This document shows, one piece after another, positions 4,692-50,224 of a stretch of DNA of 51,398 nucleotides. Source of the stretch: an uncultured delta proteobacterium (lineage in GTDB: Bacteria > Desulfobacterota > Syntrophobacteria > Syntrophobacterales > Syntrophobacteraceae); contig CAWEHK010000001.1 of the NCBI GenBank assembly GCA_963808625.1, positions 1-51,398 on the forward strand, in the 5' to 3' direction. The notes beneath the pieces are model-generated. The model was not told where the DNA came from, did not search any database, and saw nothing but the letters and a program-made list of their open reading frames with translations. Positions within the stretch are counted from its first letter, which is position 1; every line of letters starts with the position of its first letter. Position numbers and translations under genes: made by a program.

Positions 4692-4759
4692 TGGAAAGTT
4701 GGCGTTGTTGCCGCCGGGGTGCGTAAATCGAGTGGCCGGCTCGGGGTATGATCGGGTGA

Positions 4760-5949: not shown

Positions 5950-5998
5950 GGGATGATTTTACCTTGAAAATTCGGAGAGTAATCCGAAGTTTCAAGGT
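5950..5998 (-). promoter_or_regulatory. Palindromic operator/promoter abutting the ATPase start codon
   Basis: ACCTTGAAAATTCGGA-N6-TCCGAAGTTTCAAGGT (5961-5998). On the minus strand, TAAAAT lies 6 nt before the ATG. Confidence 0.7.
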
Positions 5999-6272
5999 GA
6001 GATTACCAGGGCAATATGTACTTATGTGTCCTGCTGATTAAGGTATTGCGGGATTTGTCATTTTTCCATATCCTTGAAGCTGGCGTTTGCCATGGAAGAC
6101 GACGAACCATCTTACCAATTCGACATGAGCTGCGCTGAGAGAATCTTGAAGAGTTGGGTTCAGGAGTTTTTGAAAGCCCTGGAGGGCCAGAATTGGTTTC
6201 ACAAAAGACGGTCCTGTTGACCTCTTACGGCTTTTCCACTCTGCGCCGAGAGCTGACACCTGACATGCTTCT

Positions 6273-7083
6273 ATGGCTGGTACATTCGGAATGAAAACAC
6301 GGTTGCCCAAGAATGATAGCAAAGCTAAGCATTCATCTGCAGAAAAGACTCAGAAAGGTTACGTCAGTTCTGAACGGATCAGGACCTGGCCCACAAAGGA
6401 GCGCCCCCGCGAACGACTCCTCGCTGAAGGCCCCGAACGGCTGACTGATGCCGAGTTGCTCGCCATCATCCTTCGCGTCGGATTGGGGACGTTCAAGGAG
6501 GGCGTACCAGGAAAAAATGCCTACGATGCGGCCCTCTCCATTCTACGGGATTTCCGAGGGCTTCGCGGGCTGGACCGCGCCCGCATTCATGACCTGCTCA
6601 AGGTTCCTGGCCTTGGGCCGGCAAAGGTCGCGCAGATCAAGGCTGCGTTTGAGCTCGGAAAACGCTTGGTCGCTGGGAAACTCACAGCCCCCGCTTTTGA
6701 ATCCTCGAAGGCTGTCGCCAACCACTTCCGTCCGCGCTTCACGGGAAAGCGTCGAGGAGATCGTCATCGCCCTGTTCTTGAACGGGCAGAACCAGCGCCT
6801 TGGCGAGAAGGACATCACCGAGGGCACACCGACCCAAGCCACCGTGTATGTCCGTCGCATTCTGGAAGAAGCCCTCCACCATTCGGCAGCGGCGATCGTC
6901 CTGGTTCACAACCACCCATCGGGTACTCCTGAACCCTCAGCGGGTGACGACGAGACGACACGCGACCTCTTGCGCGCATGCAGACTGGTGGGCATGGTCC
7001 TGCTTGATCACGTGATTGTTGGCGACCCTGACCATTATAGTTATGCCGATTCCGGTCGGTTAGAGGAACTCGAGTCCGAATAG
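6273..7083 (+). CDS. radC: RadC/JAB-domain protein (frameshift near 6750)
   Basis: ERPRERLLAEGPERLTDAELLAIILR, HhH GLGPAKVAQIKA, HNHPSG...D...LLDHVIVG. Confidence 0.9.
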
Positions 7084-7094
7084 AAGGAGGCCGT

Positions 7095-9519: not shown

Positions 9520-10821
9520 TGGAAGGAGTTGGACGGCAACTGGATTCGCGTCAGTCTCATTGCCCACTGTCAATCTGTTCCGCTGCCCATTTGTGATTTC
9601 TTTCACGCCGCGTTGAACCGGTTGATAAGTCAAGACGCTTGGCTGAGGTGGAGCCCATAACCATTCATTTTGACGGTTCGTTCAGCAAACGACTACTCAA
9701 AGAGGGACGGGAGTACTCGTGCCGATGTTGTGGGTTATCCCGGCGATCTCGTCTTCTCGAAAATTGACTCCCGAATGGGCCACGGTCTCCTCCAAAGGAT
9801 TCCCTAACGTTGCTGTGACCACGAATACCCGGTCCATGAACCGGACAGAAACAAGGTACTACCGGTACTTCCGCTTGCTACTGCGGACTCCCTTTTCAAA
9901 ATGTCTTTCCCGAAAACAATCAGGGCACGAGGACGCAGGAAGCGAAACTCCCCGACTTCGAGGAATCGAAGTCCCGCTTTCCGAACTACAAGACCAACGC
10001 CGGTTGGTCACCGCCTACCAGAAGGCTCTGGACAAAGCTGCCGAACTCGAAGCGCAAGCTCAGCAGATCGAACGCGACGCACAGCGGGAGTTTGAAGCCG
10101 CTCTTGGTTTGACGCCCCCGCCGGATCTCCCCAAACGCCCGTTTCAGATCGCCCGCTTCCGGGACATCGAACGCTGGAGTCATGCAGGGATTCTACAGGC
10201 CGCATTGCTCGGTGATACCCCGCCGGAATCCAGATTCGAGAGCGTGCAACTTGGCGACATCGCAACCGTATCCTACGGGCTTCAAAAATGTCCGACTAAC
10301 CGACCCGACAAACACGCACGACCCTATCTTCGTGTTGCCAACGTCCAGCGCGGTCATCTCGACCTGCGTGAGATCAAGATGATCGACGTGCCCGATACGG
10401 ACAATGCCCAAATACCGATTGGAGGACGGCGATATCTTGCTTTGTGAGGGCAACAGCGCTGACCTCGTTGGCCGGGGGGCCATCTGGAGAAATGAAATTG
10501 CCGACTGCGTTCACCAGAACCACGTGCTCCGTGTCCGCATTGACCAGCGGCGTGCAATCCCCGAATTCATCCTCGCGTACATCAACTCGCCGTCCGGCCA
10601 AGCGTATTTCCGCTCGAAGGCGAAGCGCACAACCAACCTTGCGTCTATCAACAGCAAGGAAGTCAACCTGGCAGGTACCTCTGCCTGAGGACATAGCGAC
10701 ACAAGTTGCGATAGTGCGGCTTGTGAAGAAAGGACGCGAAGCAGCCGCCTCGAAACGGAAACAGGCCGCCGAACTCCTTACCGCCGCGTGGAACGACTTC
10801 ATAAAAGCCGTATTCGCGTAG
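9500..10821 (+). CDS. Restriction-modification specificity (S) subunit with two TRDs, frameshifted
   Basis: IEVPLSELQDQRRLV, VQLGDIATVSYGLQK, PYLRVANVQRG, GDILLCEGNSADLVGR, HQNHVLRVR, TTNLASINSKEV. Confidence 0.85.
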
Positions 10822-10885
10822 GGGGAGCAAAACCCATGATGACAGGCAAGGTGTCTATCTCAGCCATGGCTAAAGCATCCGGGTC

Positions 10886-10925
10886 GCTCGTCGGTCGTGC
10901 CCGCGAGGTATGGCACGCTTTTTTT
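10886..10925 (+). terminator. Putative rho-independent terminator downstream of the RM operon
   Basis: CGTGCC-loop-GGCACG followed by a T tract. Confidence 0.45.
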
Positions 10926-10948
10926 CAAAGCGGATTAAGTCAGGCATA

Positions 10949-11216
<268 letters not shown>

Positions 11217-11229
11217 GCAGGAGGCAGCA

Positions 11230-11484
11230 ATGCATTGGGACGTAATGTCCGCAGAGGTGATCGATCATCTCGAATTCATCGTAACCTTTGCCGATGGGGT
11301 CAGGGGGAGGGTGAAGATGCTCCCGTCACACCTGTTCGGTGTTTTCGAGCGACTGAAAGACCCGTCCGTATTCAGCCAGTTGCGGGTTACAGACGGCTTC
11401 GTCTCGTGGCAGGGGGAGATTGACCTCGCTCCGGATGCCATGTATGAGGCCATCCGTCGTGATGGTGAGTGGGTGCTGAGCTGA
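11230..11484 (+). CDS. DUF2442-family protein, partner of DUF4160
   Basis: VTFADGVRG...GVFERLKDPSVFSQ...VSWQGEIDLAPDAMYE. Confidence 0.85.
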   Translation: MHWDVMSAEVIDHLEFIVTFADGVRGRVKMLPSHLFGVFERLKDPSVFSQLRVTDGFVSWQGEIDLAPDAMYEAIRRDGEWVLS

Positions 11485-11543
11485 ATGACCAAGCCCAAGA
11501 GAACCCCGGAGATCGACTTTCGGGAGCAAACCACTGGGCAGCT

Positions 11544-12722
11544 TCACGCTGCGCACGCCTGTTGGCCACCCCTGGCCTCCAGTGCCTCCGACAACTCACC
11601 TAAATGCTTCAGGGGATAGACCGTGACGCGTTCGTGAACGGGATAATCGTTGGCGCCGGGGTAGATGATCCAAAGATGGTCGAGTTGCAGCGCATCCAGG
11701 GTGCTGTACAACGATTTGGTCACCTTGGGAGCTTCACTGAATTTGAAATCGATTCCGAGGCGTCGGCCGCGGTGGAGGAAGAAAAGGTCGAGTTCGGCGA
11801 CGCTGTGAGTGGCCCAAAAGTATGCGTCGGCTGGCTTCAAGACACGCAGAGTTTGCTCCAGGGCGAAACCCTCCCAGGAAGCGCCAAGACGAGGATGCCC
11901 CAGGAGGCTGTGGCGATCGGGAAGGCTCAGGAGGGTGTGCAGCAGTCCCGAGTCCCGGAGATAAATCTTGGGTGCTTTGACCTGGCGTTTGCTGATGTTT
12001 TCATGCCACGGCTGGAGTTGGCGGACCATGAACGTGCCGGTGAGAATATCCAGGTAGGAACGTACGGTTTTGTCGGTAAGGCCCATTGATCGAGCCAATT
12101 CCGAGGCATTCCAGGTCTGTCCGTGGAAGTGGGCAAGCATGGTCCAGAAGCGGCGCATGGCTGCCGCTGGAATCGAAATGCCCAATTGCGGGAGGTCACG
12201 CTCCAGGAAGGTGCGCACGAAGCCCTCCCGCCATGCCATGCTGTCGTCATCTGAGGCTGCGAGAAAAGCGCGCGGAAACCCGCCCCTCAGCCACAGTTCC
12301 TCAATGGATTCGGTCCCCGTCTCCTGGAGATCGAAACCAGAAAGTTCAACGAATTCCACTCGTCCGGCAAGGGTCTCCGAGACGCCCTTGACAATTTGAG
12401 GGGAGGCGCTGCCCAGCACGATAAAGCGAACCTGGCTCGTCGGCCGGTCAACCAGCACCCGCAGGGCTTTGAAGAGCTCTGGCATCTCCTGAATCTCATC
12501 AAGAACGGCAAGGCCTTCAAGCCTTCCCAACATCAGTTCCGGATTTTCCAGGCGCTGTCGGTCGGGCTGCGATTCCAGATCGAAATAGGTGGTCCTGCGC
12601 TCCTGGGCAAACTGCCGCGCAAGCGTGGTCTTTCCACACTGCCGAGGTCCCAGCAAAGCGGTGACAGGAGAGCGTCGAACCGCCGTTGCCAATTGTTTGA
12701 GATAGAACGGTCGATCAATCAT
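11544..12722 (-). CDS. AAA_14 ATPase + DUF4143 protein, copy 2 (intact)
   Basis: 392 aa, near-identical to copy 1; C-terminal ELDLFFL...GIDFKFS nuclease-like motif. Confidence 0.92.
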   Translation of the reverse strand: MIDRPFYLKQLATAVRRSPVTALLGPRQCGKTTLARQFAQERRTTYFDLESQPDRQRLENPELMLGRLEGLAVLDEIQEMPELFKALRVLVDRPTSQVRFIVLGSASPQIVKGVSETLAGRVEFVELSGFDLQETGTESIEELWLRGGFPRAFLAASDDDSMAWREGFVRTFLERDLPQLGISIPAAAMRRFWTMLAHFHGQTWNASELARSMGLTDKTVRSYLDILTGTFMVRQLQPWHENISKRQVKAPKIYLRDSGLLHTLLSLPDRHSLLGHPRLGASWEGFALEQTLRVLKPADAYFWATHSVAELDLFFLHRGRRLGIDFKFSEAPKVTKSLYSTLDALQLDHLWIIYPGANDYPVHERVTVYPLKHLGELSEALEARGGQQACAA

Positions 12723-25890: not shown

Positions 25891-26050
25891 ATACTCGTTT
25901 AGGCTGAAAACCTTCATTTCGGTGGGCTTAGGAATCAACCGCAGAGCACGCTGAGATCGCAGAGGAATCCAATCATTTCAGAGCAAATCTCTCTGCGCAC
26001 TCTGCGTTCTCCGCGGTAAAGAGAGAACTTTTTCATCTTTAACGAGTATA
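25891..26050. mobile_element. MITE family M3 with converging CGCAGAG 9-bp arrays
   Basis: TIR ATACTCGTTTAGGCTGAAA / TTTCATCTTTAACGAGTAT; inverted homologue at 29213-29372. Confidence 0.82.
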
Positions 26051-26106
26051 TCTTTACACAGCTATGCCTTCCTTTAGAGCCATCTGCCTGTCCGGGGAGA
26101 AGCATC

Positions 26107-27428
26107 GTGAAGTATCCTGAAATCAAGACCGCCCTTCCGGGCCCCGCGCGGCGGCGCTCATTGCCATTGACCGCGAATTTGTATCCCCTTCCTATACCCG
26201 GAGCTACCCGCTGGTCGCCGAATCAGCCGAAGGGCTCTGGATTCGTGATCCGGACGGCAACGTCTTTCTCGACTTCACCGCGGGCATCGCGGTCTGCGCT
26301 ACGGGACACTGCCATCCGCTCGTGGTGCGGGCCATCAAGGAACAGGCCGAGCAGCTCCTGCACATGTCCGGTACTGATTTCTATTACCCTCCCCAGATCA
26401 TGCTGGCGCAAAAGCTCGCCAGCGTGGCTCCCGGTCCTGGCGCCCGCAAGGTTTATTTCGGCAACTCCGGCGCCGAAGCGGTCGAGGCGGCCTTCAAACT
26501 GGCCCGCTGGCATACCCGGCGCGAGCTCAACCTGGCTTTCTTCGGCGCTTTCCATGGCCGTACCATGGGAGCGCTGTCTCTGACCGCCAGCAAGACCATT
26601 CAGAAGAAACATTACAGTCCCATGGTGCCGGGGATTACTCACGTTCCCTATCCTTACTGTTACCGATGCCCTTACCGGCTTTGCTATCCGACATGTGGGA
26701 CCGCTTGTGTGGACTGGATCGAGGATACCCTTTTCCGCACTACCGTCCCCCCCGAGGAGGTTGCTGCGATCTTCGTCGAGCCGATCCAGGGGGAGGGCGG
26801 CTATATCGTGCCTCCACCGGAATTCCATCAAAGGCTCTACGGGGTCGCGCAGAAATACGGCATCCTCTATGTCGCCGACGAGGTGCAGTCCGGCATGGGA
26901 CGCACGGGCAAAATGTTCGCCATGGAACACTTCGGTGTTGCTCCCGAGATCCTGGCCGTGGCCAAGGGTGTCGCTTCTGGTATGCCGCTGGGGGCCATGG
27001 TGGCCTGGGCGGACATCATGGACTGGGAGGCCGGGTCGCACGCCTCAACCTTTGGCGGCAACCCCGTTTCCTGCCAGGCCGCTCTAACCACTATGGAGCT
27101 GTTGGAAGGCGGTCTCATGGATAACGCCGCGCGCCGCGGCGAACAACTGATGGCCGGGCTCCGGGAAATGCAGCAGGCCATCGAATGCATTGGCGACGTC
27201 CGCGGCAAGGGGCTGATGGTAGGCGTTGAACTGGTGAAGGATCGCGTGACCAAAGAGCGCGCCGAAGACTGGCGCGACCAGGTAATCCAGAAGGCCTTTG
27301 GCAAGGGTCTGCTGCTCCTTGGCTGCGGCGCCAATTCCATCCGCTTCTGCCCGGCCCTGACCGTCAGCGCCGATGAAATCGACGTCTGTCTCTCGATTTT
27401 CGAGGAGGTTTTGCGAAAGGTCACATGA
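26107..27428 (+). CDS. Class-III PLP omega-aminotransferase (ornithine/lysine/GABA-type), 5' frameshift
   Basis: PEIKTALPGP, LDFTAGIAV, NSGAEAVE, FHGRT, EPIQGEGG, DEVQSGMGRTG, AKG, STFGGNP. Confidence 0.9.
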
Positions 27429-27449
27429 TACTACAATGAGACTTCGCTG

Positions 27450-27536
27450 GTAGGGTGGGCAAAAGCGGAGCGTTGCCCACCGCTTTGAGGCGTGTGGGCG
27501 CTTCGGTGGGCAAGGTAAAGCCTTTGCCCACCCTAC
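27450..27536. repeat. GTAG-type REP doublet inside a short TIR shell (about 27429-27574)
   Basis: GTAGGGTGGGCAA...TTGCCCACC and GGTGGGCAA...TTGCCCACCCTAC. Confidence 0.85.
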
Positions 27537-27646
27537 ATGATGGTGCGGGCATCCCCCAATATCTCGTTGGAGTGCTGATAACGCGCGGGTCTTTTAAGCA
27601 AGGTTAAACTGTGTGGGGAAGACTCAGCCGCCGGAAGGAGGATCTC

Positions 27647-29190
27647 ATGGAAGGGTTAATCGCCGAACTTGGCCTTGCCAATATGAATTCAGGGACTGTT
27701 GCCGGCCCGGTCACCCTGGAATGCCAGGGAGAGGTCCTGGAATCGGTTTCTCCGGTCGATGGGCGGGTGCTTGGCCAGGTGCGGCAGGCTTCCGCTGCTG
27801 ACTATGAGATTGTAGCCACAAAAGCGGCCGCAGCTTTCCTCGAATGGCGTATGACGCCGGCGCCGCAGCGCGGGGAGGTCGTGCGGCAAATTGGCAATGC
27901 CATGCGTGCCCGCAAGAAGGAACTGGGAGCTCTGGTCAGCCTCGAAGTGGGCAAGATCAGATCTGAGGCGGAGGGGGAAGTGCAGGAGTTGATCGACATC
28001 TGCGATTTCGCCGTCGGACTCTCGCGCATGCTCTATGGCCTGACCATGCCCAGTGAACGCCCGAAGCACCGCATGTATGAGCAATGGCACCCGCTCGGCC
28101 CCATCGGCGTTATCACCGCCTTCAATTTCCCGGTCGCGGTCTGGGCGTGGAACGCGATGATCGCCATGGCAGCCGGCGATACGGTGGTCTGGAAACCCTC
28201 CAGCAAGGCGCCCCTGACGGCCCTTGCCATCACGAAGATCGTCGGCCCGGTGCTCGAAAAAAATGGGCTTCCCCAAGGGATTCTAAATGTTGTGATCGGT
28301 AATCGCCATGATGTGGGCGAGCAATTGATATCAGACCGTCGCTTGCCGCTCATCTCGGCAACGGGCAGCGTGGCCATGGGCCGCCATGTGGGCCAGGTGG
28401 TGGCCGCACGCCTTGGGCGATCACTCCTCGAGCTCGGCGGCAACAACGGGGTCATCGTGACGCCCAGCGCCGATCTCGGGCTGGTAGTGCGGGCCATTCT
28501 TTTCGGGGCCGTCGGTACCGCAGGGCAGCGCTGCACGACCATCCGGCGCGTGATTGCTCACAAAGATATCTACGGTCCGCTGTGCGAAGGCCTCATAGAA
28601 GCATATCGCCAGGTGGTGATCGGCAATCCGTTGGAAGACGGCGTGCTCATGGGGCCGCTCATCGATCGGCATGCGGTTGAGAAGATGCAGAAAGCGCTGA
28701 GGGTCCTCAAGGAGCAGGGCGGCAGTGTGCTCTACGGCGGAGACGTTCTCAGCGGCGGGACCTTCGATGCCGGGACCTATGTCACTCCCTGCATTGCGGA
28801 GGCGCGCCACGACACTGCCCTTGTTCAGGAAGAAACCTTCGCTCCGATTCTGTATATGATCTCCTATGACAACATCGAAGAGGCCCTTCGCTATCACAAT
28901 GGCGTGCCTCAGGGGCTCTCAGCTCGGCGATTTTCACCAATGATTTGCGCGAGAGCGAAATGTTCCTCAGCCACATGGGGAGTGATTGCGGGATTGCCAA
29001 TGTGAATGTCGGGACCTCGGGGGCTGAGATCGGCGGCGCCTTCGGGGGAGAAAAGGACACCGGCGGCGGCCGCGAATCCGGCTCCGATGCCTGGAAGGCC
29101 TACATGCGCCGCCAGACCACGACGATCAACTGGTCTCGCGAACTGCCCCTGGCTCAGGGGATTCGGTTTGGTCTCGAGCCGCCACGATGA
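27647..29190 (+). CDS. ALDH7-family aldehyde dehydrogenase (P6C/aminoadipate-semialdehyde dehydrogenase-like), frameshift near 28920
   Basis: [67 protein letters not shown]. Confidence 0.9.
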
Positions 29191-29212
29191 TCACCATGGT
29201 GTCAATTTGACA

Positions 29213-29372
29213 TATACCGGTTAAGGATGAAATGTTTCATTTTTCACCGCGGAGAACGCAGAGTGCGCAGAGAGATTTTACACTGAAATATTTTGGTTTC
29301 TCTGCGATCTCTGCGTGCTCTGCGGTTAGTTTCTATGTCTACCAAATTGAAAGTTCTCAGCCTAAACAAGTA
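29213..29372. mobile_element. MITE family M3, second copy
   Basis: Reverse-complement homology to 25891-26050. Confidence 0.82.
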
Positions 29373-29431
29373 GAGGTTGGTAGCGAAGGATTTTTGAACC
29401 ATCGGATTCTCACGGGGCAGGCCAAACACTA

Positions 29432-30560
29432 ATGGGACTTCTTTTCATCGACGGCAATCAGGCCGTAGCAATGGGGGCGCTCTATGCGGGGTGCCGGTTT
29501 TTTGCGGCGTACCCGATCACTCCGGCAACGACGCTGTTTGCGGCCATGCTCGAACGGCTTCCGGCAGCCGGGGGCATCGTCCTGCAGGGCGAGGATGAAA
29601 TCGCCGCCATGGGTTACTGCCTGGGAGCGTCCATGGCGGGCATGAAAGCCATGACCGCGACTTCGGGACCGGGGATAAGCCTTTACAGTGAGAACATCTC
29701 TTTTGCCATTGCCGGCGAGATTCCCATCGTGGTCGTCGATGTCATGCGCCAGGGGCCTTCCACGGGCGCGGCCACCCTCGCTGCCGACGGGGACGTGCAG
29801 TTCCTGCGCTGGGGTTGCAGCGGGGGGCTGCCGGTCATCGTGCTCGCTCCGGTTGACGTGCGCGATTGCTTCACCTTGACCGTCCATGCCTTCAACCTGG
29901 CGGAACGGTTCCGCTGCCCCGTCTTTCTCGCCTCGAATAAAGAAATCGGCATGACGCGGGAGACCATCGATATGGCGAGCGTCGAAAAGCCTGCCGTGCT
30001 CGACCGGACCCTGCATGCTTCCGGACCGTTTCTTCCTTTTGCGGTAAAGGACGGAGAAGACGTTCCGGCCTTCCTTCCCATCGGGGGACCCGTGCCGGTG
30101 AGGCAGACTTCGTCCACTCATGGCGCCAACGGTTACATCACCACCGATCCCTCCGCGATTCAGGCGGGAGTGGAACGACTGCAGAGAAAGATCGAATCCC
30201 AGGTGGCGTCGTTCACTTTTTTTGATTTTAAAGCACGAGCCGGTGCCCGGACGTTGATCGTGACCTACGGCATCACGGCGCGAGCGGCAAAAGCAGCAGC
30301 GGCGGCGATCTTCGAGGAGTCGGGCCAACCGGTTTCAGTGCTGGCGTTGAAGACCCTCTGGCCGGTGCCCGAGCAACTGCTCCTCGAGGCGGCGGCAGGA
30401 ATGGAGCGGGTCGTCGTGGTCGAAATGAACCTGGGACAATATGTCCATGAGGTCCGTCGAGTGTTTGCGGGAGGCGGGCGGATTTCCATGGTGAAGTGGA
30501 ATTCTATGGCAAAATGGATGGCCGGTTGATCTCGCCTGGGGAAATCACAAGCGAGGTGCT
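29432..30560 (+). CDS. 2-oxoacid:ferredoxin oxidoreductase alpha subunit (3' frameshift)
   Basis: GNQAVAMGA, YPITPAT, EDEIAA, ATSGPG, VMRQGPSTG, VVEMNLGQY. Confidence 0.9.
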
Positions 30561-30562
30561 GC

Positions 30563-31880
30563 GTGGCTAGTCTGCTCAATCCGAGTCGTCCCCCCGCTTT
30601 CTGCCCCGGATGTTCCCATGAGCAGAGCCTGCACGCCCTGGATCGGGCGTTGCTCGACTTGGGCCTGCACGCTCACGAAATTGCCATGGTGAGCGATATC
30701 GGCTGTTCCGGGCTATTCGACACGTTTTTCAAGACGCACGCCCTCCATGGCCTTCACGGTCGTGCCCTCACCTATGCCGCCGGCATCAAGCTCGCCCGCC
30801 CGGAGCTCGCGGTGGTGGTGACCATGGGCGACGGCGGCGTCGGCATCGGAGGCGCTCATTTCCTGGCGGCCTGCCGCCGCAATCTGAACCTGACGCTCCT
30901 GGTCCTCAATAATTTCAACTTCGGGATGACCGGCGGCCAGTTCTCCTGCACCACGCCCTCCCAGGCTTCGGTGGCTTCCGGTTTTCTCAATACGCTCGAA
31001 TCACCCATGGACATTTGCCGCGTCGCTGCCGCTGCCGGGGCCCCCTTCGTAGCGCGCTGCCTCGGTTTATGAGAAGGATTTGAGTCGGCTGCTGGCGCGG
31101 CGATAGCCTTCGACGGGTTTTCCGTGGTGGATCTCTGGGGAATCTGCACCGGCCACTACCGTCGCCGAAACCCGCTGACGCCCGGGGACATCCGGAAGAG
31201 CCTTGAAGAGTCTGCCCGCCTTCACCGGTCCCGTGGCTGCGAATGTGCGCCCCGAATATGGAGTCTTGTTATAGGGAAGCTAGCCGGGTTCCGAGGGTGT
31301 CGGGACCGACTGGAAGGGGATTGCGGCACACTTTGCACCGCCGGTCCGAGGGCGCCGCGAAATCGTCCTCCTCGGCGCCGCCGGGGATCGGATCATTTCC
31401 GCCGGATCGCTGCTGGCTCATGCGGCGATTCTCGGCGGAATGCAGGCGACCCAAAAGAACGATTACGACATCACCGTGATGCGCGGCCCCTCCGTCAGCG
31501 AGCTCATCCTGTCTCCCGAGCCGATCCTTTTTACCGGGGTCGAACGGCCCGACGTCATCGTCGCGCTTGCACCGGAAGGGGTTATGCGAAAGCGGGAGCT
31601 CTTCGCCAAAATGTCCTCCAAGGGCCGGGTGATCCTGGCGAAAGGAGTTGGAAATCCCCGATACTGCGCGCCCATGCCGCAGAAATCGACTTCAAGGGGC
31701 ATGGCATCAAGACGAACCGAACGGGCGCTTGCCGCCCTGTCGCTGCTTGCCCGCGAGCCGAAGATCCCATCACCATCGAGATGCTCGAAATGGCGCTACG
31801 AGGCTCCCTCAGCGGTAAAACCCTGGAGGGCAGCCTTGGCCTCCTGCAACGAGCGGCAACCATTGCCACCTCTTAGCTGA
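30563..31880 (+). CDS. 2-oxoacid:ferredoxin oxidoreductase beta-gamma fusion, frameshifted
   Basis: FCPGCSH, DIGCSG, HGRA, GDGG...NNFNFGMTGGQ (TPP site), then gamma-like EIVLLGAAG and ATQKNDYDITVMRGPSVSE. Confidence 0.85.
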
Positions 31881-32087
31881 TCGCCAGTGGTGGTTATGCT
31901 CCTGGCTATGCGGCCGTCGCCAAGGTGAACAGGATATTCTTTTCGTCTGTCTTCAGCTTGGGTGTTCACATTTCGGCCAGGAATATGGATGATTGGGCAT
32001 GCAGTTTGATCAACTCATGCCACCCATTCTTCTCGAAGACCGATGGATTAGATTTATGCTTATCGCCCGCCCGCCTGATCGGCAACA

Positions 32088-32973
32088 TCATTTTCGAGCT
32101 AGTATTGTATCGTCTGCGACTGTTTTCATTGGTGCTGACATCGCTGATTTGTTTACATAGACCTTGGAGAAAAAGGCATCCACAAAAGCCATTGGCAGCG
32201 GCATTGACTTGGAGTTGAGAACCACATATTGGGTCTCGAGCCGCTTGTGGTTGCTTATGCCAGGCGGAGATGTATCCGATACTGTGTAAGGCAAGGCGAC
32301 CTCTGCGTCATCATCGCGTTGCGCAAGAAATCTATGATTGGCTTTATCCCACTCAATGCGGACTGTCGTATTCTCGCCAACTTTTATGGTCCCGAGATGT
32401 TGGTTTGCAAGCACGGTGCCTGTGATACAGTCCTTATCACCACAGAGAAATGCAAAAGCCTCCACACGAAGAGTGTCAAGGGGATCAGAAGAGCCTAATG
32501 CCCTTCTAATACCAACCTCAGCCCACACATCATTTACTCCACTATCGGGCGTCGGTGTTCCAGTGTTAAAGAAATATCCGCAAAGCCGGGCTACTACCCT
32601 GCTGTTATTAGAGCGCACTGGATCAGTGGTCGGGCCTGATTAGCGTGTAGCTTTTCACTTGGATGGTGGCTTTCATGGCTGTGACAGTATCGCCATCAGT
32701 GAATCGCAAACGATGGTTTACAAGAGAACTCCCGAGATCCGTCGTATTGCTTCCATAACCACGGACGAATAAATGCAACCGCCCCGTTTCAATTTTGCGA
32801 TGGTTTTCGCGCATGGACAAAGGATAATTTTGGGATTCGTTGCCAACCCATTTCACCGGATTGATAAGTGTCGCACGAAAATCGTCGTAAAGCTTCAGTG
32901 GTCCACCGGCGTGTGCGGACATGCCCAGGAAAACAACCAAGATAAAAACACAACAACCAAGTATAAACCTCAT
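32088..32973 (-). CDS. Secreted hypothetical protein (frameshift near 32625)
   Basis: Signal peptide MRFILGCCVFILVVFLGMSAHA with a GGAG RBS; two consecutive beta-rich ORFs; lower GC. Confidence 0.6.
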
Positions 32974-33219
32974 GGATTCTCCCTTTTCAAGGTTGGTTTT
33001 TCAAATTCGATACCCTTTTTGATGGCAAAACCAAAATCTGTCTCATTTCCCTGAGATTCTCTCCTCTGTTTAGGGGGCTGTGAGAGTGTCAATGCCGTGC
33101 CGAATACACAAATTCGCGTGGGTGGGGCACAACTGCTACAACTGGATTCAGAAGTCAATAAAAGAATGAAAGCAGGTATGCAGTGTAAGCTCAACCATCT
33201 AATGGTCCATTTGCTACGA

Positions 33220-33470
33220 TCATTTTCGGCAAACAAAGAGACCTTGCTCCATGAGAGAGGATTTTTCCGTAATATCTCGGCAACTGGTACAACAGAAAGC
33301 CCCTGGCCACCAAAGCTTGGCAATGTAGTCGAGACGAGCCTCTTCACCGCTAAACCATTCGTCAGACTCCTGGAACGTTCCAGGATGGTTAATGCCGGAA
33401 ATCGGGTGTCTTTGCTCTTCATCGACCACGTGCTAGACTATATGATTGGCTGAGTGAAGTGCATGCCCAC
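33220..33470 (-). pseudogene. IS1595-family transposase N-terminal remnant
   Basis: PGTFQESDEWFSGEEARLDYIAKLWWPGAFCCTSC...GLFVCRK, a Zn-ribbon start. No DDE domain follows. Confidence 0.7.
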
Positions 33471-33520
33471 TATGGCATATTTTAAAGACAAGGGGATGTG
33501 CCGGGGACGGAGGGCCAGGA

Positions 33521-34348
33521 ATGAAGTTCCTTGAAGGACTTTCAGAGGACATCAAGAAGAATCTTTTGGAGCAGCTCCGCGTCCTCTGGACGCATGCTTC
33601 GACCGCCATCGAGGGGAACACCCTGACCTTGGGCGAAACCGCGTTTGTTCTGAGCGAAGGGCTGACCATCAGGGGGAAGCCGCTCAAGGATCATCGGGAG
33701 GTTGAAGGCCATGCCCGTGCCGTCGAATTGGTTTATGCCCTTCTCAAAAAAGACGAAATCGTCGCATCCGACCTTTTCGATCTTCACCGTCTGGTGATCG
33801 ACGAGCAAATTCTGGATGTGTACAAGCCTGTTGGCGGGTGGAAAAAGGAGAACAATGCCGTAAACATCGCGATTGGTGACAAACAGACGATAGTGGAATT
33901 CTCGAATCACTGGGAAATCCCTCAGCTCATGGAACGCTGGCTTCATCTCCTGAACGCTGAAATCCGCTCCGTAAAAGAACCCCAAGAGGTGCTTCAGTCC
34001 TATGCCCGCCTCCATCTCTCCCTGGTCAGCATCCATCCCTTCTGGGACGGGAATGGCCGGATCGCCCGGCTGGTTTCCAACCTTCCCTGCCTTCGGGCCG
34101 GCTACCCACCGATCATCATCGCCAAAGAGCGGCGCTACGATTATCTCACCCTGATTGGTCAATACCAGTTGGCCCACGGCGTTCCTTCCCTCAACACGGA
34201 GATGATCCACGAAGATGCCTTGCTTGAGGGATTTTGCTTGCTCTGCGAGGAATGTTGGAAGGGAAGCCGCTCCCTTGTCGAGCAGGCTCACGTGCTCCAG
34301 CGAAACAGGGATAACAGAACCTCCAAAGCAACTACCTCTCCCCCCTAA
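33521..34348 (+). CDS. Fic-domain protein
   Basis: STAIEGNTL inhibitory motif and HPFWDGNGRIAR. Confidence 0.93.
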   Translation: MKFLEGLSEDIKKNLLEQLRVLWTHASTAIEGNTLTLGETAFVLSEGLTIRGKPLKDHREVEGHARAVELVYALLKKDEIVASDLFDLHRLVIDEQILDVYKPVGGWKKENNAVNIAIGDKQTIVEFSNHWEIPQLMERWLHLLNAEIRSVKEPQEVLQSYARLHLSLVSIHPFWDGNGRIARLVSNLPCLRAGYPPIIIAKERRYDYLTLIGQYQLAHGVPSLNTEMIHEDALLEGFCLLCEECWKGSRSLVEQAHVLQRNRDNRTSKATTSPP

Positions 34349-34448
34349 CCAAGATCCTCACCGGGTCCCAGCGAAGAATGAGAGCAGGAGATTGACAGCT
34401 GAAGTGACTTCTCAATAAGTAGGGATGCACGAACTCTTCTGAAAGCGC

Positions 34449-34480
34449 TGGATTCCCGCCAGAAGCGCGCGGGAATGACG
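34449..34480. repeat. GGATTCCCGC...GCGGGAATGAC REP-like hairpin
   Basis: Same core type as in the M1/M5 elements and at 50774-50806. Confidence 0.75.
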
Positions 34481-34559
34481 ATCTGAGACTACCACGGTCC
34501 CTTTGGGGCTTTATGCGATGAGATTAGTTGCCGAAAGAATGAACATCCCTCTGTTATTA

Positions 34560-34598
34560 TTCTGACTTCTGACTCCTGACTCCTGTCTTCTGACTCCC
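34560..34598. repeat. 7-bp tandem (T/C)CTGACT array next to the gcdH stop
   Basis: TTCTGAC TTCTGAC TCCTGAC TCCTGTC TTCTGAC TCC. Confidence 0.85.
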
Positions 34599-34605
34599 AG
34601 TCTCC

Positions 34606-35800
34606 TCACCATGTTCGACTCAGCTGCGCCTTGGCGGCAAACGCATCATGCCCCGTGATGTCGCGCCCGATGATGAGGGTGTGGATATCGTGGGTGCCTT
34701 CATAGGTATAGACGGATTCAAGGTTCAGCAGGTGGCGGATGGCGTGGTAGTCGAGGGTGATGCCGTTGGCGCCCAGGATGTCGCGGGCGGTGCGGGCGAT
34801 CTTCAAGGCTTCGGCGACGTTGTTCATCTTGGCCATCGAAACCTGGGTGTGCCGGGCGCGCCCCGCATCTTTCAGGCGCCCGAGCTGGATGCAGAGGAGC
34901 TGCGCCTTGGTGATTTCGGTCAGCATCTTCACCAGCTTGGCCTGCACCAGTTGAAAACTGGCGATGGGCGCCTCGAACTGGATGCGGCTCTTGGCGTATT
35001 GGAGCGCGGTTTCGTAGCAGGCCATGGCGGCGCCGACCGCTCCCCAGGCGATGCCGTAGCGCGCTTCGTTGAGGCACATGAGGCCGGATTTGATGCCGTC
35101 CGTGCCCGGCAGGAGGTTTTCGGCGGGGATGCGCACGTCATCGAGCGCCAGTCCCGAAGTGACCGATGCGCGCAGGGAATACTTCCAGGGAATGGGAAAA
35201 GCCTGAAAGCCGGGCATGCCCTTTTCCACCAGGAAGCCGCGAATGCCTTCCTCGGTCTGGGCCCAAATCACGGCCACGTCAGCCAATTCGCCGTTGGTGA
35301 TCCACATCTTGCTGCCGTTAAGGACGTAGTCGCCGCCCTTCCGGCGGCGCGGGTGCGCATGTGCTCGGGGTCGGAACCGGCGTCGGGTTCGGTCATGCCG
35401 AAGCATCCTACCTTCCCACCGCGCGCCAGGGCCGGCAGCCAGCGCTCCTTCTGGGCTTCGCTGCCAAAGGTGTAGATGGGGTACATGACGAGGGAATTCT
35501 GCACCGAAACAAAAGAGCGCAAAGCCGCTGTCCCCGCGCTCCAGTTCCTGGCACACCAGGCCGTAGACGACGTTGCTCATTGCCGGGCAGTCGTAGCCCT
35601 CGATTTTGATGCCCAAGAAGCCCGAGTTCAGCCAATTGCGGAATGAGCGCGACATCGAAGGTTGCTTCATCGAAATACGATCCGATTTTCGGCAGGTACT
35701 CGTTTTCCACCCACCGCCGGACGGTGTCCCGTACGTTCCGCTCTTCGACGCTCAAAAGATCCTCGGTATGATAATAATCAACTCCCTGGAATGGTTTCAT
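34606..35800 (-). CDS. gcdH: Glutaryl-CoA dehydrogenase-like acyl-CoA dehydrogenase, frameshifted
   Basis: [73 protein letters not shown]. Confidence 0.88.
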
Positions 35801-45827: not shown

Positions 45828-47249
45828 TCAAACAGGGAACCTTTCAAAAGCCTTGGCTGACAGGTCGGTTCTCAACAGACCGGGGAACACCTCGTTGTAG
45901 AGCTCGAGGCACCACTTTTGAATCATCGCACTCCGCTCTTCCGTGATGGATCCTGTTCCTTCAAGGTATTCAGCAAACCAGTACAGGGAATTCAGGGAAA
46001 CGATGGCAGCGGTGCTGTCCAGGAAGATGAAAGACTTGCAGGTTCTGGCAATGGTCGTTTCGATCTTGTCTTTGGTGAAAATAAACGTCTCCTTGGGGCG
46101 CCTTCCTTCCGGAATGACATTGACGAGATACCTGTAGACCATTTTTCTGTAGAAGTCCGCCGCCAACCAATCCTTCCCCTTGCGTTCATGGAGGAATCCC
46201 ATGAAGTTGAGGCTCACTTGATAGTATCGATCGATTACTTTGCTCCTGGTTTTGCAGTCGTCACTATTCCAGCCCTTTCGGCTGTTCAGAATGAGCTCGA
46301 AATGCTGCCTCAGGAAATCGGGCTGATAGAGCTCGTCTTTTAGGGGGATCCTTATGGTCCTTAGTCTGGAAGCCAGTTCCTCCAGGTCGGCATGAGTGAA
46401 ATCAGGCTTCAGGAAAGGAGCCATGTATGCCATGACCAGGATGTCGATGAGCTCGTCTCCTCCAAAGATTTCCGGACATGTACATACATCGTAATAGACG
46501 TCTTGGACCAGGTCGGTTACCATCTCCTGGCAATTGTTCGCCATCATGAATTCGATGGTTTTGAAGAGGTTGTCCGGATCGTGTTCGGGATACTCTTTGA
46601 AGTAGCTCAGAAAGTTCGCTGCCTCGTCTTTGCGACCGATGGTGATTTTGTGACTGATGATGTCACGATCATAGTAGCCGAAGCTCTTAAGATAGGAATC
46701 GGCGAACTGGCTCCGCATTTTCAATAGAAGATCGATATACTCAGAGCTCCTGCCTTCCTTGACATAGTCGGCGCCTAGCTCGAACAACACCTCCATATGC
46801 AATTCAAGATTCGGAACGAGTTTGGGATGGTCACGCAGGAAGTCCTCAAGATGTTGCCTGATCTCCCCAATCTCGTGCATTTTCTTGTACTTTTCCCACC
46901 ACTTATCGACGATCTCCTCTTCTGCATCGCTGATCCGGGGGCTCTCCTCCGGCACTCTTTTGCGCGGCCTGCTTTCCGCTTTCGAGTCCTCAGAGGTCTT
47001 ATCCATTTCCTCTTCCTCGTCCATCTCGTCTAGTTCATCACCGTAGAGCTCATCTTCGGATTCCTCCTCATCGAGTGCGTCTTCGAAAAGATCCTCGTCT
47101 TCTTCAGGTTGTCTCTTTGCTTGAAGCTGTCTCCTCTCTTGATCCTCCAGGCGGGATCGTCTCGCTTCCTCATCTTTGGCGAGACAACACTTCTTATACT
47201 TCTTGCCGCTCCCACAAGGGCAGGGTGCATTTCTTCCTATTTTCGCCAT
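45828..47249 (-). CDS. SEC-C motif protein with an acidic linker and unknown helical domain
   Basis: KIGRNAPCPCGSGKKYKKCC at the N-terminus. Confidence 0.85.
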   Translation of the reverse strand: MAKIGRNAPCPCGSGKKYKKCCLAKDEEARRSRLEDQERRQLQAKRQPEEDEDLFEDALDEEESEDELYGDELDEMDEEEEMDKTSEDSKAESRPRKRVPEESPRISDAEEEIVDKWWEKYKKMHEIGEIRQHLEDFLRDHPKLVPNLELHMEVLFELGADYVKEGRSSEYIDLLLKMRSQFADSYLKSFGYYDRDIISHKITIGRKDEAANFLSYFKEYPEHDPDNLFKTIEFMMANNCQEMVTDLVQDVYYDVCTCPEIFGGDELIDILVMAYMAPFLKPDFTHADLEELASRLRTIRIPLKDELYQPDFLRQHFELILNSRKGWNSDDCKTRSKVIDRYYQVSLNFMGFLHERKGKDWLAADFYRKMVYRYLVNVIPEGRRPKETFIFTKDKIETTIARTCKSFIFLDSTAAIVSLNSLYWFAEYLEGTGSITEERSAMIQKWCLELYNEVFPGLLRTDLSAKAFERFPV

Positions 47250-47499
47250 ATTCCGATCCTTTACTCGCAAGGTGACAGTTCCAGGCCCTCTTGAAAGAGC
47301 CTTGCCGCATTCGGTCCAAATCCGCTCATTTTCGATTACGACAGGAAGGCTCCTGCATCAAGAACAAATTGGCAGGCAGCCCCTGCATTGGCACTACCAA
47401 ACACATCCGTTTTACCCTCGCTCAAACTCGTCAAATATGACCACAACCGGTGTCCGAATCCTACTCCTGAGCACAGCGCTACGCAAGGGTCTTGGTCGG

Positions 47500-47620
47500 C
47501 GTATTCGATGCACCTTTCCTCATAGCGGTCACTGCCGCAGAAATTACAGCGTTTCGTTTTCATTGAGGCGTTTCTCCTCGGGTCCATGGGTCGATGAATT
47601 TCGGAAGACCGGGTACTCGC
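47500..47620 (-). pseudogene. DUF4258 toxin tail + YgiT-type zinc-finger start (TA remnant)
   Basis: ...VPGLPKFIDPWTRGETPQ* overlapping MKTKRCNFCGSDRYEERCIEY. Confidence 0.5.
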
Positions 47621-47839
47621 GATTGCCCGAATCCCGGACTCGCAGGGATTAGGGGGATCGTCAATGCTGTGAAGTAAGCGAGGAACGGAGAGATCTCCGG
47701 GTGTAGATCAAAAGTGGGAGTAAGCATCGCACCTAAGGTTTCTCCTGAGCCACAGCGTTATTCCGGCGATGGTTCCAGCCGAATACCAGAGCTACTTCAA
47801 ACTGGACGAGCACGTTCCGGGATTCCGGCATTAAAGCGT

Positions 47840-48010
47840 GCCCTGAAAGGACTCAAGATCTGCGCAGGTGCAGGCAATGCCACCTTGTTGGGTTCAGATT
47901 CGTCACAGCTCTATACCCTGAAAGGTTGGATAAATCGTCACCTCAAGAGTCCCAGTAATCACTCTTGGAGGGTATACAATGCTTTTACTCTGCCTCCCCA
48001 GGGTGGCGTA
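47840..48010. repeat. Degenerate CCCTGAAAGG element related to 23669-23891
   Basis: CCCTGAAAGG twice, GCCACC, CCCAGGGTGGCG. Confidence 0.65.
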
Positions 48011-48048
48011 CCACTGACGGTGGATAAATAATGGAAATTCCTATAAGA

Positions 48049-48210
48049 TTGAATTAAGCCGAGGACACGGAGTGCGGGAGACGCGGTGACACGGTGACGC
48101 CAAGGTGAGAGCGACTAATTCTGTTGCAGGACGCGGGTGTACAGCCTCATCAGTGAGTCTCCCCTTCTCCGTGTCTCCCTGTCCCCGCGTCTCCGCGTCA
48201 CTAATTCAAC
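48049..48210. repeat. Converging 8-bp GG(A/T)GAC(A/G)C arrays in a TTGAATTA/TAATTCAA shell
   Basis: Directly visible; same unit as 23441-23993. Confidence 0.8.
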
Positions 48211-48421
48211 AACATTGAGGGGGATCGTTGGGCATGCAGCAGCCAATCGAGGTGCCAACCGCCGAAGGCGGAGGGCGCGACGTGACTACCAGGACGAAAG
48301 TTTTGTGATCTGTCACCGCGAAATGTGGCGATAACTTAACAGATCCTGTACCTTCAAGAGGGGATCGTTCGTCGTTGATATCCTATGGATATTTTGCCAG
48401 AAGGTGGATTCTGACCAGAGA

Positions 48422-48494
48422 GACCTCGCATGAAAAGCATGATTTGGAAACGTTGAAGATTTCAGTGCCTCATTTTTCAACAAGGAGGAGAGAT
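48422..48494. repeat. About 73-bp direct repeat, copy A (copy B at 50567-50639)
   Basis: GACCTCGCATRAAAAGYATGATTTGGAAACGTTGARGATTTCAGYGCCTCATTTTTYAACAAGGA. Confidence 0.85.
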
Positions 48495-48568
48495 ATCTCA
48501 TCAAATCGACGGGTTGCTTCCCCACAGTACAATACAAGGCAGCTGTACGTGGAGCTTCCCTTTTTCCA

Positions 48569-48672
48569 GCCGAACATCAGGGTTAAGCGCAGGGCAACCA
48601 CGCAGGAAGTAATTCCGTAACACCGATAAACTTGCCGCGTGGTTGCTCTTCCGCTTGAGCCGTTCATTGGGG
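48569..48672 (-). other. attC site downstream of the RelE cassette
   Basis: Minus strand CCCCAAT...AAGCG-GAAGA-GCAACCACGC...GCGTGGTTGC-CCTG-CGCTT...GTTCGGC. Confidence 0.7.
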
Positions 48673-48701
48673 GAACCAGCATTGAGCTAACCGAGGCTTC
48701 T

Positions 48702-49097
48702 TCAATTATCGTCGGGTTCAGGTACCGTGTCGTCTACAGCAAAGTCTTGCGTCTCGCATTCTGAGATAATGCGCCGGATCTCTGCTGGTGTGATATCCGA
48801 TTGTTCGGTCTTTGAATAGATGGTGATCAAAACGATAGAACCATTACTGGAACAAGAATAGATAATCCGATAGCCACCACTCTTGCCTTTGGCTGCATCT
48901 GAGTTCTTGGCTCGGGTCTTGAAAACCTCATATCGGATACCTGGAATTTGGTCTCCTGGCGTTCTTCCCTGGGTTAAATCCTCGATGACCGGCTGCACAT
49001 CGGATTTTATGCGTCGATATTTCTTGGCCAGCTGTCGAAGATTGCGCTTGAACTCCGGAGTGTAAACGATCTCAGATGCTTGAGGATTATTGGGCAT
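48702..49097 (-). CDS. RelE/ParE-superfamily toxin
   Basis: YTPEFKRNLRQLAKKY...GDQIPG...KGKSGGYRIIY...ITIYSKTEQSDI. Confidence 0.88.
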   Translation of the reverse strand: MPNNPQASEIVYTPEFKRNLRQLAKKYRRIKSDVQPVIEDLTQGRTPGDQIPGIRYEVFKTRAKNSDAAKGKSGGYRIIYSCSSNGSIVLITIYSKTEQSDITPAEIRRIISECETQDFAVDDTVPEPDDN

Positions 49098-49305
49098 CAA
49101 TGCCGTCCCATAAATCTTCCACGGGAGAGGTGATGCCGCTTTGAGCTTCACACCAACCCTGCCGGAAGCTGTCCGCAGCCGGCTTCAGTGTAACACTCTC
49201 CCGGAAAGCACGCATCATTTGCAGAAGAAATGGTAGATATTCTTCCGGCAATGCATCTATTTCCGCAAGTAGTCTATCTCGGCAAATCTTGGTTGCAGCG
49301 ATCAT
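49087..49305 (-). CDS. Cognate antitoxin
   Basis: AGGAGG RBS; EIDALPEEYL...SFRQGWCEAQSG...EDLWDGID; overlaps the toxin start. Confidence 0.8.
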   Translation of the reverse strand: MIAATKICRDRLLAEIDALPEEYLPFLLQMMRAFRESVTLKPAADSFRQGWCEAQSGITSPVEDLWDGIDAQ

Positions 49306-49415
49306 ATAAAGCCTCCTTTGATCCAACTATAGCACGGTAGAATGCATTATGGTACCTCTATTGGCGGTACCACATAGCGTGCAGTGTTAAGCCGCTGTCG
49401 AACCCTGGAAGAGTT

Positions 49416-49437
49416 GCCCAACGCCAAGAATCAGCGG
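49416..49437 (-). other. attC 3' half-site preceding the TA cassette
   Basis: Minus strand CCGCTGATTCTTGGCGTTGGGC. Confidence 0.6.
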
Positions 49438-49444
49438 TGACGGG

Positions 49445-50224
49445 TCAAGGAATGGAGGGCGTGGAAGACCCTCTGTCAGCACCATTCGGCGGGAGCGCAG
49501 GGGTACTTGCGGTCGAGGGCCGTCGGCGTCCCAACACGGCCCCACCCTTGGGCCAGGTCGCGCTCATGAATCGCCTTGACCTTCTTGAGGGGGTCCTGAA
49601 GGGGGGCTTGAGTGATACGGGTAGCCTCGTGACCCGGTCTTTCGCTCCCTTGCCGTCGCGCACCAGAATCTCGTTACGGGAGAAGTCAATGTCCTGCACG
49701 CGCAGGCGCATGCATTCCATCAGGCGCAGCCCCGCGCCATACATCAGAGACGCCATCAGCGATTTGTCCCCGGTCGAGCTCGCCGGCACGCCTTTCACCT
49801 CATCGAGGGTCATCACCACGGGCAGGCGGGCAGGTTTGCGGGCACGGTTGACTTCGCCCAAGTCGCCAACCTGGCGTCCGATAACATGCCGGTAAAGGAA
49901 GAGCAATGCCGAAAGGGCCCGGTTTTGCGTCGAGGCGCTAACCTTCTCCTTGACAGCCGGATGGGTGAGGAAGGCGTTGGTTTCCGGCTCGGCCATCTCC
50001 GCCGGGTGACGAACGTGGTGAAAGAAGATGAACCGTCTCACCCAGCGGCAATAGGCCTGTTCGGTGCGTCGACGGTAGTGGCGTGATCGGGGTGCCTCAT
50101 GAAGTTGGTCCGTCAGCTTCGGCATGCGAGCGGGGACCGCTGGGGCGTTCTGCCCTGGTGGTCGGGAAGCGGCTTTTCCTGCAAGAGATGGACGCAATTG
50201 GAGTTTCTGTTCGCCTGTCGTCAT
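49445..50224 (-). pseudogene. intI: Integron integrase, C-terminally truncated and degraded
   Basis: RHYRRRTEQAYCRWV, VSASTQNRALSALLFLY, LMYGAGLRLMECMRLRVQDIDF, RDGKGAKDR. A shifted frame gives the IntI patch ALDRKYP with a stop; the HxxRH and Tyr motifs are absent. Confidence 0.9.

Follow-up and report, generated by a model that had tools for sequence, protein, structure and literature searches.

The stretch of DNA analysed here (hereafter the window, 51,398 nucleotides) is the entire contig CAWEHK010000001.1 of assembly GCA_963808625.1, from an uncultured delta proteobacterium of the Syntrophobacteraceae whose genome is 84.6% complete. Genomes and loci are labelled with G and L numbers, respectively, and the source genome is G000. 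The genes in question encode an omega-aminotransferase (AT), an ALDH7/Pcd-type dehydrogenase, a 2-oxoacid:ferredoxin oxidoreductase (OFOR) and a glutaryl-coenzyme A (CoA) dehydrogenase, and are arranged in the window as follows:

26107-27428, plus strand: class III pyridoxal phosphate omega-aminotransferase (PRK05769/NF004426, PH1423/TK2101 type), frame broken close to the 5' end
27647-29190, plus strand: ALDH7/Pcd (piperideine-6-carboxylate/aminoadipate-semialdehyde dehydrogenase), frameshift near 28920
29432-30570, plus strand: OFOR alpha (POR_N + PFOR_II), YPITP motif and substrate Arg kept, clade-specific RQTSSTH loop, frame broken close to the 3' end
30563-31876, plus strand: OFOR beta-gamma fusion (TPP_enzyme_C + POR), cluster cysteines kept, Kor Arg/Lys site occupied by Leu, overlapping the alpha stop
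31877-34605, no strand: insert of lower GC content between OFOR and gcdH (0.503 vs 0.61 in flanking genes), no part of the pathway
32088-32618, minus strand: open reading frame of the insert, no Pfam match
33521-34348, plus strand: Fic-family gene inside the insert (PF02661)
34606-35800, minus strand: decarboxylating GcdH/GCDH-type glutaryl-CoA dehydrogenase, convergent with OFOR, several frameshifts

The co-directional order of AT, ALDH7/Pcd, OFOR alpha and OFOR beta-gamma, given in a preliminary description of the window, was confirmed by position and family. The glutaryl-CoA dehydrogenase that it placed about 3 kb further on is present, but is read from the minus strand (35800-34606), converges with the OFOR across the 2.7-kb Fic insert and is therefore not co-transcribed with it. 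In relatives, too, OFOR and gcdH are convergent at 14 of 15 loci, mostly with 30-223 bp between them. For the Dpp and Liv importers and the C69 dipeptidase, previously described as companions of the cluster, none of 110 related loci yielded a close orthologue; they were ruled out as pathway parts and placed outside the conserved unit.

The AT passed the NF004426 model (615.7 bits vs a cut-off of 552) and failed the GabT model TIGR00700 (355.6 vs 506.65). Its nearest solved structure was 7vno (E 1.8e-126), which we take to be PH1423. Lat and RocD models were absent from the best 25 models listed for it, and none of its 47 PDB matches at E ≤ 1e-60 was named as a lysine aminotransferase. The enzyme is an omega-aminotransferase, as first described, and is placed by NF004426 and 7vno in the PH1423/TK2101 family instead of Lat. 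According to the table in PMC9986279, PH1423 and TK2101 use L-ornithine and L-lysine, and TK2101 takes 2-oxoglutarate or 2-oxoadipate as acceptor. The linkage of the AT to Pcd and GcdH, as read from gene context, implies a role in lysine catabolism.

For the dehydrogenase, the best NCBIfam model was NF050084; the window protein, truncated by its frameshift, scored 586.7 and fell under the cut-off of 730, while the intact orthologue in L021, which is 84-94% identical, passed (786.5). Its best PDB matches were Pcd and ALDH7/ALDH7A1. The ten best PDB matches of an intact GcdH orthologue were nine glutaryl-CoA dehydrogenases and one acyl-CoA dehydrogenase (E 3e-138 to 9e-112), with the non-decarboxylating 3mpi at only 1e-53, and the Acd model gave 206.4 on another orthologue against a cut-off of 470. 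Judged by these matches, the acyl-CoA dehydrogenase of the window is of the decarboxylating GcdH type, not Acd.

The OFOR has the POR_N, PFOR_II, TPP_enzyme_C and POR domains of its superfamily, together with the YPITP motif, the substrate Arg and the cluster cysteines. Nothing in the cluster was seen to encode a ferredoxin or a ferredoxin domain, and by analogy with other OFORs the enzyme would carry out a CoA-dependent decarboxylation with an external ferredoxin as electron acceptor. The nearest OFOR models for the window proteins were KorAB-type; alpha, scored as a 353-aa truncated frame, reached 370.5 on NF006412 against a cut-off of 411, and identity to Kor paralogues was approximately 42-45%. 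In a quick tree with two-group rooting only, 88 alpha sequences were split from 20 paralogues by a long branch (SH-aLRT 100). Of 301 genomes drawn evenly from the phylum, 16 had this clade (at most nine candidates scored per genome), and an atlas search returned unnamed OFOR clusters only.

The substrate pocket differs from that of KorAB/OorABC enzymes, for which a basic beta residue after GCS(G/S) is expected. At this site (beta position 51, after GCSG), Leu was found in 92 of 93 clade members and Phe in one, whereas all 20 controls carry Arg and the four solved beta chains carry either Arg or Lys. In 6n2n, the corresponding Arg presumably has a role in 2-oxoglutarate binding. In StOFOR1, the change of Lys49b to Ile abolished 2-oxoglutarate activity (PMC5020499). 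Alpha Arg224, which lies four residues before the position aligned to the pocket residue Asp468a, and alpha Lys170 were invariant (87/87), and may bind a longer dicarboxylate. Beta Asp45 and Asp53 were also invariant in the clade.

Gene order around the OFOR was compared across the best 80 of 568 OFOR relatives in a genome collection, using at most 10 kb per side (many loci were cut by contig ends), and across a control set of 20 paralogous OFOR loci, all drawn from one order. The check for conserved synteny, proposed in advance, was passed. At least one gene for a glutaryl-CoA enzyme lay within 10 kb in 46/80 clade loci vs 0/20 control loci (GcdH in 14, the glutaconyl-CoA decarboxylase alpha subunit GcdA in 30 and the non-decarboxylating Acd in 6). 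AT was found in 12/80 loci and Pcd in 9/80. The complete order, AT-Pcd-OFOR facing gcdH, recurs in five of the 80 (L044, L047, L050, L051 and L063), which is more than chance. Two Desulfacinum type strains were among the carriers in this best-scoring set, in an Aap-linked context. A second set of 80 metagenome loci, 29 of which are at least 10 kb long, had glutaryl-CoA genes in 19 loci (14 of the 29 long ones) and Pcd in three.

Several loci have other genes upstream. A pipecolate-oxidase-like gene (under the AmaA cut-off) and Pcd lie beside the OFOR in L033, L037 and L166, and L033 further encodes a class I aminotransferase, an Acd-like dehydrogenase and a protein resembling piperideine-2-carboxylate reductase. 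In L164 the OFOR is accompanied by a saccharopine/lysine-dehydrogenase-like gene, and in L201 by Pcd with an amino-acid dehydrogenase. These differing sets, including AT with Pcd here and the pipecolate-oxidase-like gene with Pcd elsewhere, support a predicted convergence on 2-aminoadipate; the sole intermediate between 2-aminoadipate and glutaryl-CoA is 2-oxoadipate. Directly before the OFOR of L171 (G374) are genes for a TRAP transporter, DUF2848, a carbon-nitrogen hydrolase, a PreA-like reductase and a molybdenum hydroxylase; the hydroxylase, the reductase and an amidase of this locus would form a candidate anaerobic pathway from picolinate to 2-oxoadipate. Hydrolases similar to those of L171 precede the OFOR in L036, L038 and L106. 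A divergent clade member in L039 (G026) is located amid sugar-acid genes (two 2-hydroxyacid dehydrogenases, two dehydratases, a CoA-transferase III and BKACE).

Taken on gene content and pocket residues, the cluster is a real, conserved module in which the OFOR probably acts as a 2-oxoadipate:ferredoxin oxidoreductase feeding glutaryl-CoA in lysine breakdown. In the proposed pathway the AT would transfer the epsilon-amino group from lysine onto 2-oxoglutarate and so form aminoadipate semialdehyde/piperideine-6-carboxylate, which Pcd/ALDH7 would oxidise to 2-aminoadipate. The same AT, or a class I enzyme from another part of the genome, would then convert this to 2-oxoadipate, and the OFOR would use CoA to produce glutaryl-CoA, CO2 and reduced ferredoxin. 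Finally, GcdH would convert glutaryl-CoA to crotonyl-CoA and CO2 for beta-oxidation. The whole module would be independent of oxygen, and the OFOR would belong to a Desulfobacterota clade whose main role is to feed glutaryl-CoA breakdown. The assignment of 2-oxoadipate to the OFOR, already made in the preliminary description, draws support from synteny, the changed pocket, the other glutaryl-CoA enzymes and the second route to 2-aminoadipate; the module can do without the OFOR, as is set out below.

No dedicated 2-aminoadipate transaminase gene was visible in the cluster, as noted earlier, although the AT itself may fill this step because TK2101 accepts 2-oxoadipate. By analogy, a ping-pong enzyme taking both 2-oxoadipate and 2-oxoglutarate can in principle transaminate 2-aminoadipate. 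Class I aminotransferases elsewhere in G000 are the alternative, the best being 48% identical to the L033 enzyme. The window has no lysine 2,3-aminomutase, as stated before; elsewhere in the genome there are KamA-like genes, both below the family cut-off (478.6 and 370.3 vs 525.4). KamD (PF09043, lysine 5,6-aminomutase) was not found in G000 at its 84.6% completeness and was found in one of 41 genomes; given that this genome, G023, gave a match, the search itself works. The combination that defines classical lysine fermentation, a KamA over cut-off with lysine 5,6-aminomutase, was thus not detected in G000.

A number of observations weigh against this reading. No Pcd was detected in G003, G006 or G017, which are 96-99% complete and have an AT adjoining the OFOR, nor in 37 of 50 further carriers picked from outside the window's own group; in 32 of those 50 the AT is located elsewhere, mostly among unrelated genes. 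Twenty such AT neighbourhoods were mostly unrelated, with amino-acid oxidation clusters in L145 and L152. Aldehyde:ferredoxin oxidoreductases as a stand-in for the absent Pcd gave 3-5 matches in each of five genomes and are a lead only, because such genes are generic. The synteny counts are not independent, because the 80 loci were the top-scoring kin and a single order supplied the controls. Of ten loci counted in an evenly drawn sample (an eleventh, at 50% identity, was excluded), only two reached the glutaryl-CoA thresholds and two the lysine thresholds, one of these repeating a locus of the 80-locus set. Neighbours suited to a C5 substrate such as 2-oxoglutarate occur at some loci, so the clade may be mixed: a RocD-type ornithine aminotransferase in L165, glutamate dehydrogenase in 2/80 loci, an Aap-like ABC binding protein in 7/80, a 2-hydroxyglutarate-oxidase-like gene in L118 and a 2-hydroxyacyl-CoA dehydratase. 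Glutamate dehydrogenase, which bears on nitrogen disposal, was not found in the 84.6% complete G000. In addition, PMC5020499 describes the KorAB of H. thermophilus as 2-oxoglutarate-specific without an equivalent of Lys49b.

Five family members (G008, G010, G012, G018 and G020) encode AT, Pcd, GcdH and SucA but no OFOR of this clade, and so the OFOR is an optional insert in the Pcd-gcdH gap and not obligatory. In L256, L257 and L258, which are without this OFOR, Pcd and gcdH abut; that the clade OFOR occupies this very gap speaks for the main reading. Against it, in seven of 18 regions the AT is divergent from a four-gene lipoate-dependent E1 alpha/E1 beta/E2/E3 cluster, annotated as pyruvate dehydrogenase, that might act on 2-oxoadipate:

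L256: AT-divergent E1/E2/E3 cluster
L257: AT-divergent E1/E2/E3 cluster
L258: AT-divergent E1/E2/E3 cluster
L260: AT-divergent E1/E2/E3 cluster
L261: AT-divergent E1/E2/E3 cluster
L265: AT-divergent E1/E2/E3 cluster
L266: AT-divergent E1/E2/E3 cluster

The idea that the complex replaces the OFOR and that the two exclude each other was rejected; displacement is not supported because the complex occurs in 25/41 genomes, G000 included. Lipoate-dependent SucA was present in 32/41 relatives, alongside a Kor-type OFOR, and a class D beta-lactamase-family gene lies between AT and the E1 cluster in L258 (12017-12901).

Other functions for the cluster were weighed against these data. The OFOR could be a broad or 2-oxoglutarate-preferring enzyme serving an ornithine/glutamate module that runs from ornithine through glutamate semialdehyde, glutamate and 2-oxoglutarate to succinyl-CoA; the succinyl-CoA could activate glutarate and so account for the glutaryl-CoA neighbours. 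Such a module would fit the KorAB-type nearest models, the RocD, glutamate dehydrogenase, Aap-like and 2-hydroxyacid dehydrogenase neighbours at some loci, the frequent failure to find Pcd, and the name ornithine aminotransferase that characterised members of the AT family carry in PMC9986279. We nevertheless regard it as unlikely, since the dehydrogenase is a Pcd and no glutamate-semialdehyde dehydrogenase (786.5 vs 730 for the orthologue; 586.7 vs 233.4 bits for the window protein), the beta residue that binds 2-oxoglutarate has been lost, G000 already covers 2-oxoglutarate with SucA and a Kor-type OFOR, a separate RocD is nearby in G001 and G006, and no CoA-transferase is among the annotated neighbour clusters that recur in the 80 loci. 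A 5-aminovalerate/glutarate route, with AT and dehydrogenase as DavT and DavD and the OFOR either incidental or acting earlier (6-amino-2-oxohexanoate to 5-aminovaleryl-CoA), is quite improbable: the dehydrogenase is ALDH7/Pcd and not of the GabD/DavD type, the module has no glutarate-activating enzyme, alpha Arg224 and Lys170 are invariant, and the piperideine-2-carboxylate reductase-like gene of the pipecolate loci would drain 6-amino-2-oxohexanoate towards pipecolate. In its favour are the minor activity of PH1423 on 5-aminovalerate (PMC9986279), the existence of AT-Pcd facing gcdH without this OFOR, and a beta pocket that, minus its basic residue and with invariant Asp45 and Asp53, could suit a cationic substrate.

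Two further possibilities concern the direction of the reaction and the state of the genes. Glutaryl-CoA might be carboxylated to 2-oxoadipate by the OFOR in reverse, for biosynthesis or as an electron sink, and many GcdA-linked carriers in which no Pcd was found have a 2-oxoadipate source that the forward pathway leaves unexplained. OFORs are reversible, whereas Pcd, pipecolate oxidase and GcdH are catabolic and effectively one-way. LysA was over its cut-off in G000, which therefore makes lysine by the diaminopimelate route, and we consider reverse operation most improbable. Independently of the substrate, the cluster could be decaying in the source genome, with real frameshifts and a real insert, and the pathway working in relatives only. 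Small indels break all five reading frames, itself a point against a working module here, and this is a larger share than among orthologous genes on the assembly's other contigs, where 6/28 are split across frames; the beta-gamma frame has at least six small indels in comparison with three relatives, and intact orthologues of it are 430-440 aa long. However, orthologues at 82-90% identity are intact, adjoining transporter genes on the contig also seem broken or mis-started, and a Fic gene 83% identical to that of the insert lies between OFOR and gcdH in L043 as well. Given the split genes on other contigs and the intact orthologues, sequencing or assembly error is the likelier cause of the frame breaks than pseudogene formation, and decay is judged improbable.

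Other features of the window and its relatives were recorded. Mobile or defence-type genes are found at 2900-12722 and 45828-50224 (a DDE transposase, RadC, an HsdR N-terminus, two AAA/DUF4143 ATPases, a RelE-like toxin and an integrase). An inverted palindromic repeat of approximately 160 nt at 25891-26051 and 29212-29372 brackets AT-Pcd and has matches at 42 genome sites, and a hairpin with 33-bp arms is located at 27450-27536. A scan for promoters and terminators gave counts no higher than the shuffled expectation and was uninformative. A look-up of sequencing runs listed one of DNA, with a share of 0.06, and none of RNA. Among the relatives, a protein of approximately 445 aa that matches nothing in Pfam or NCBIfam is encoded repeatedly just ahead of carbamate kinase, in many cases following a RocD-type aminotransferase, and is a candidate unannotated enzyme of arginine/citrulline catabolism:

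L041, 14902-16239: ~445-aa protein
L164, 1108-2436: ~445-aa protein
G000, contig C17, 28536-29874: ~445-aa protein

A wider proposal is put forward tentatively. The clade may constitute a dedicated 2-oxoadipate:ferredoxin oxidoreductase at the so far undescribed hub of anaerobic C6 catabolism in Desulfobacterota for lysine, pipecolate and possibly picolinate, with one AT doing both transaminations, so that three enzymes would lead from lysine to glutaryl-CoA without oxygen, lipoate or radicals. In GcdA lineages the reduced ferredoxin would be coupled to Na+-pumping decarboxylation, and the enzyme may run backwards, carboxylating glutaryl-CoA. Should the 2-oxoadipate role of the OFOR hold, the OFOR family would gain a new class of substrate, and sulfate-reducing and syntrophic bacteria annotated without an anaerobic lysine route would be credited with one, the second known and free of radicals. 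Several hundred genes (568 relatives) now labelled Kor-like would need a corrected annotation, and the frequent position of an OFOR next to glutaconyl-CoA decarboxylase would be explained. A reversible C5-to-C6 carboxylase would be of interest for adipate and CO2-fixation engineering.

Two lysine pathways are the closest known systems. Classical lysine fermentation (KamA, KamDE, Kdd, Kce and Kal) is anaerobic and ends in crotonyl-CoA; that end point is common to both, whereas the radical aminomutases used there are absent from this cluster. The aerobic aminoadipate route proceeds by Lat or the pipecolate oxidase AmaA with Pcd/AmaB, 2-oxoadipate dehydrogenase and GcdH, and has human counterparts in ALDH7A1, DHTKD1 and GCDH. 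It shares with the window Pcd/ALDH7, a decarboxylating glutaryl-CoA dehydrogenase and the predicted intermediates. The window differs in having a PH1423/TK2101-type AT at the first step, an OFOR in place of the lipoate complex and no dedicated aminoadipate transaminase in the cluster. In PMC12655727, DHTKD1 is described as the dedicated lipoate-dependent enzyme for 2-oxoadipate to glutaryl-CoA.

At the level of single enzymes, the AT belongs to the same family (NF004426) as TK2101 and PH1423, for which ornithine and lysine use is known, but it is linked to Pcd and GcdH, while the title of a paper cited in PMC9986279 assigns TK2101 to proline supply. Two OFORs of Aeropyrum pernix, APE_2126 and APE_1473, act on 2-oxoadipate in vitro, with 37% and 52%, respectively, of the rate on pyruvate (PMC13768988, Table 1); they are of broad specificity, and the relevant passage of that paper connects them with neither glutaryl-CoA nor lysine catabolism. 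The earlier remark that such an OFOR role was not recognised as characterised needs narrowing, because this side activity is published: only a dedicated enzyme and its pathway would be new, neither having been found in literature coverage that left out most subscription journals and supplements. With KorABC/OorABC (8ys5, 6n2n) and the Sulfolobus OFORs (5b46, 5b48), the window clade shares the YPITP motif, the substrate Arg, the thiamine diphosphate motif and the beta cluster cysteines. It differs from all of these in the gamma domain fused behind beta, in the replacement of the beta Arg/Lys by Leu and of the TG(L/D)xH loop by RQTSSTH, in its other gene neighbours and probably in forming a separate clade.

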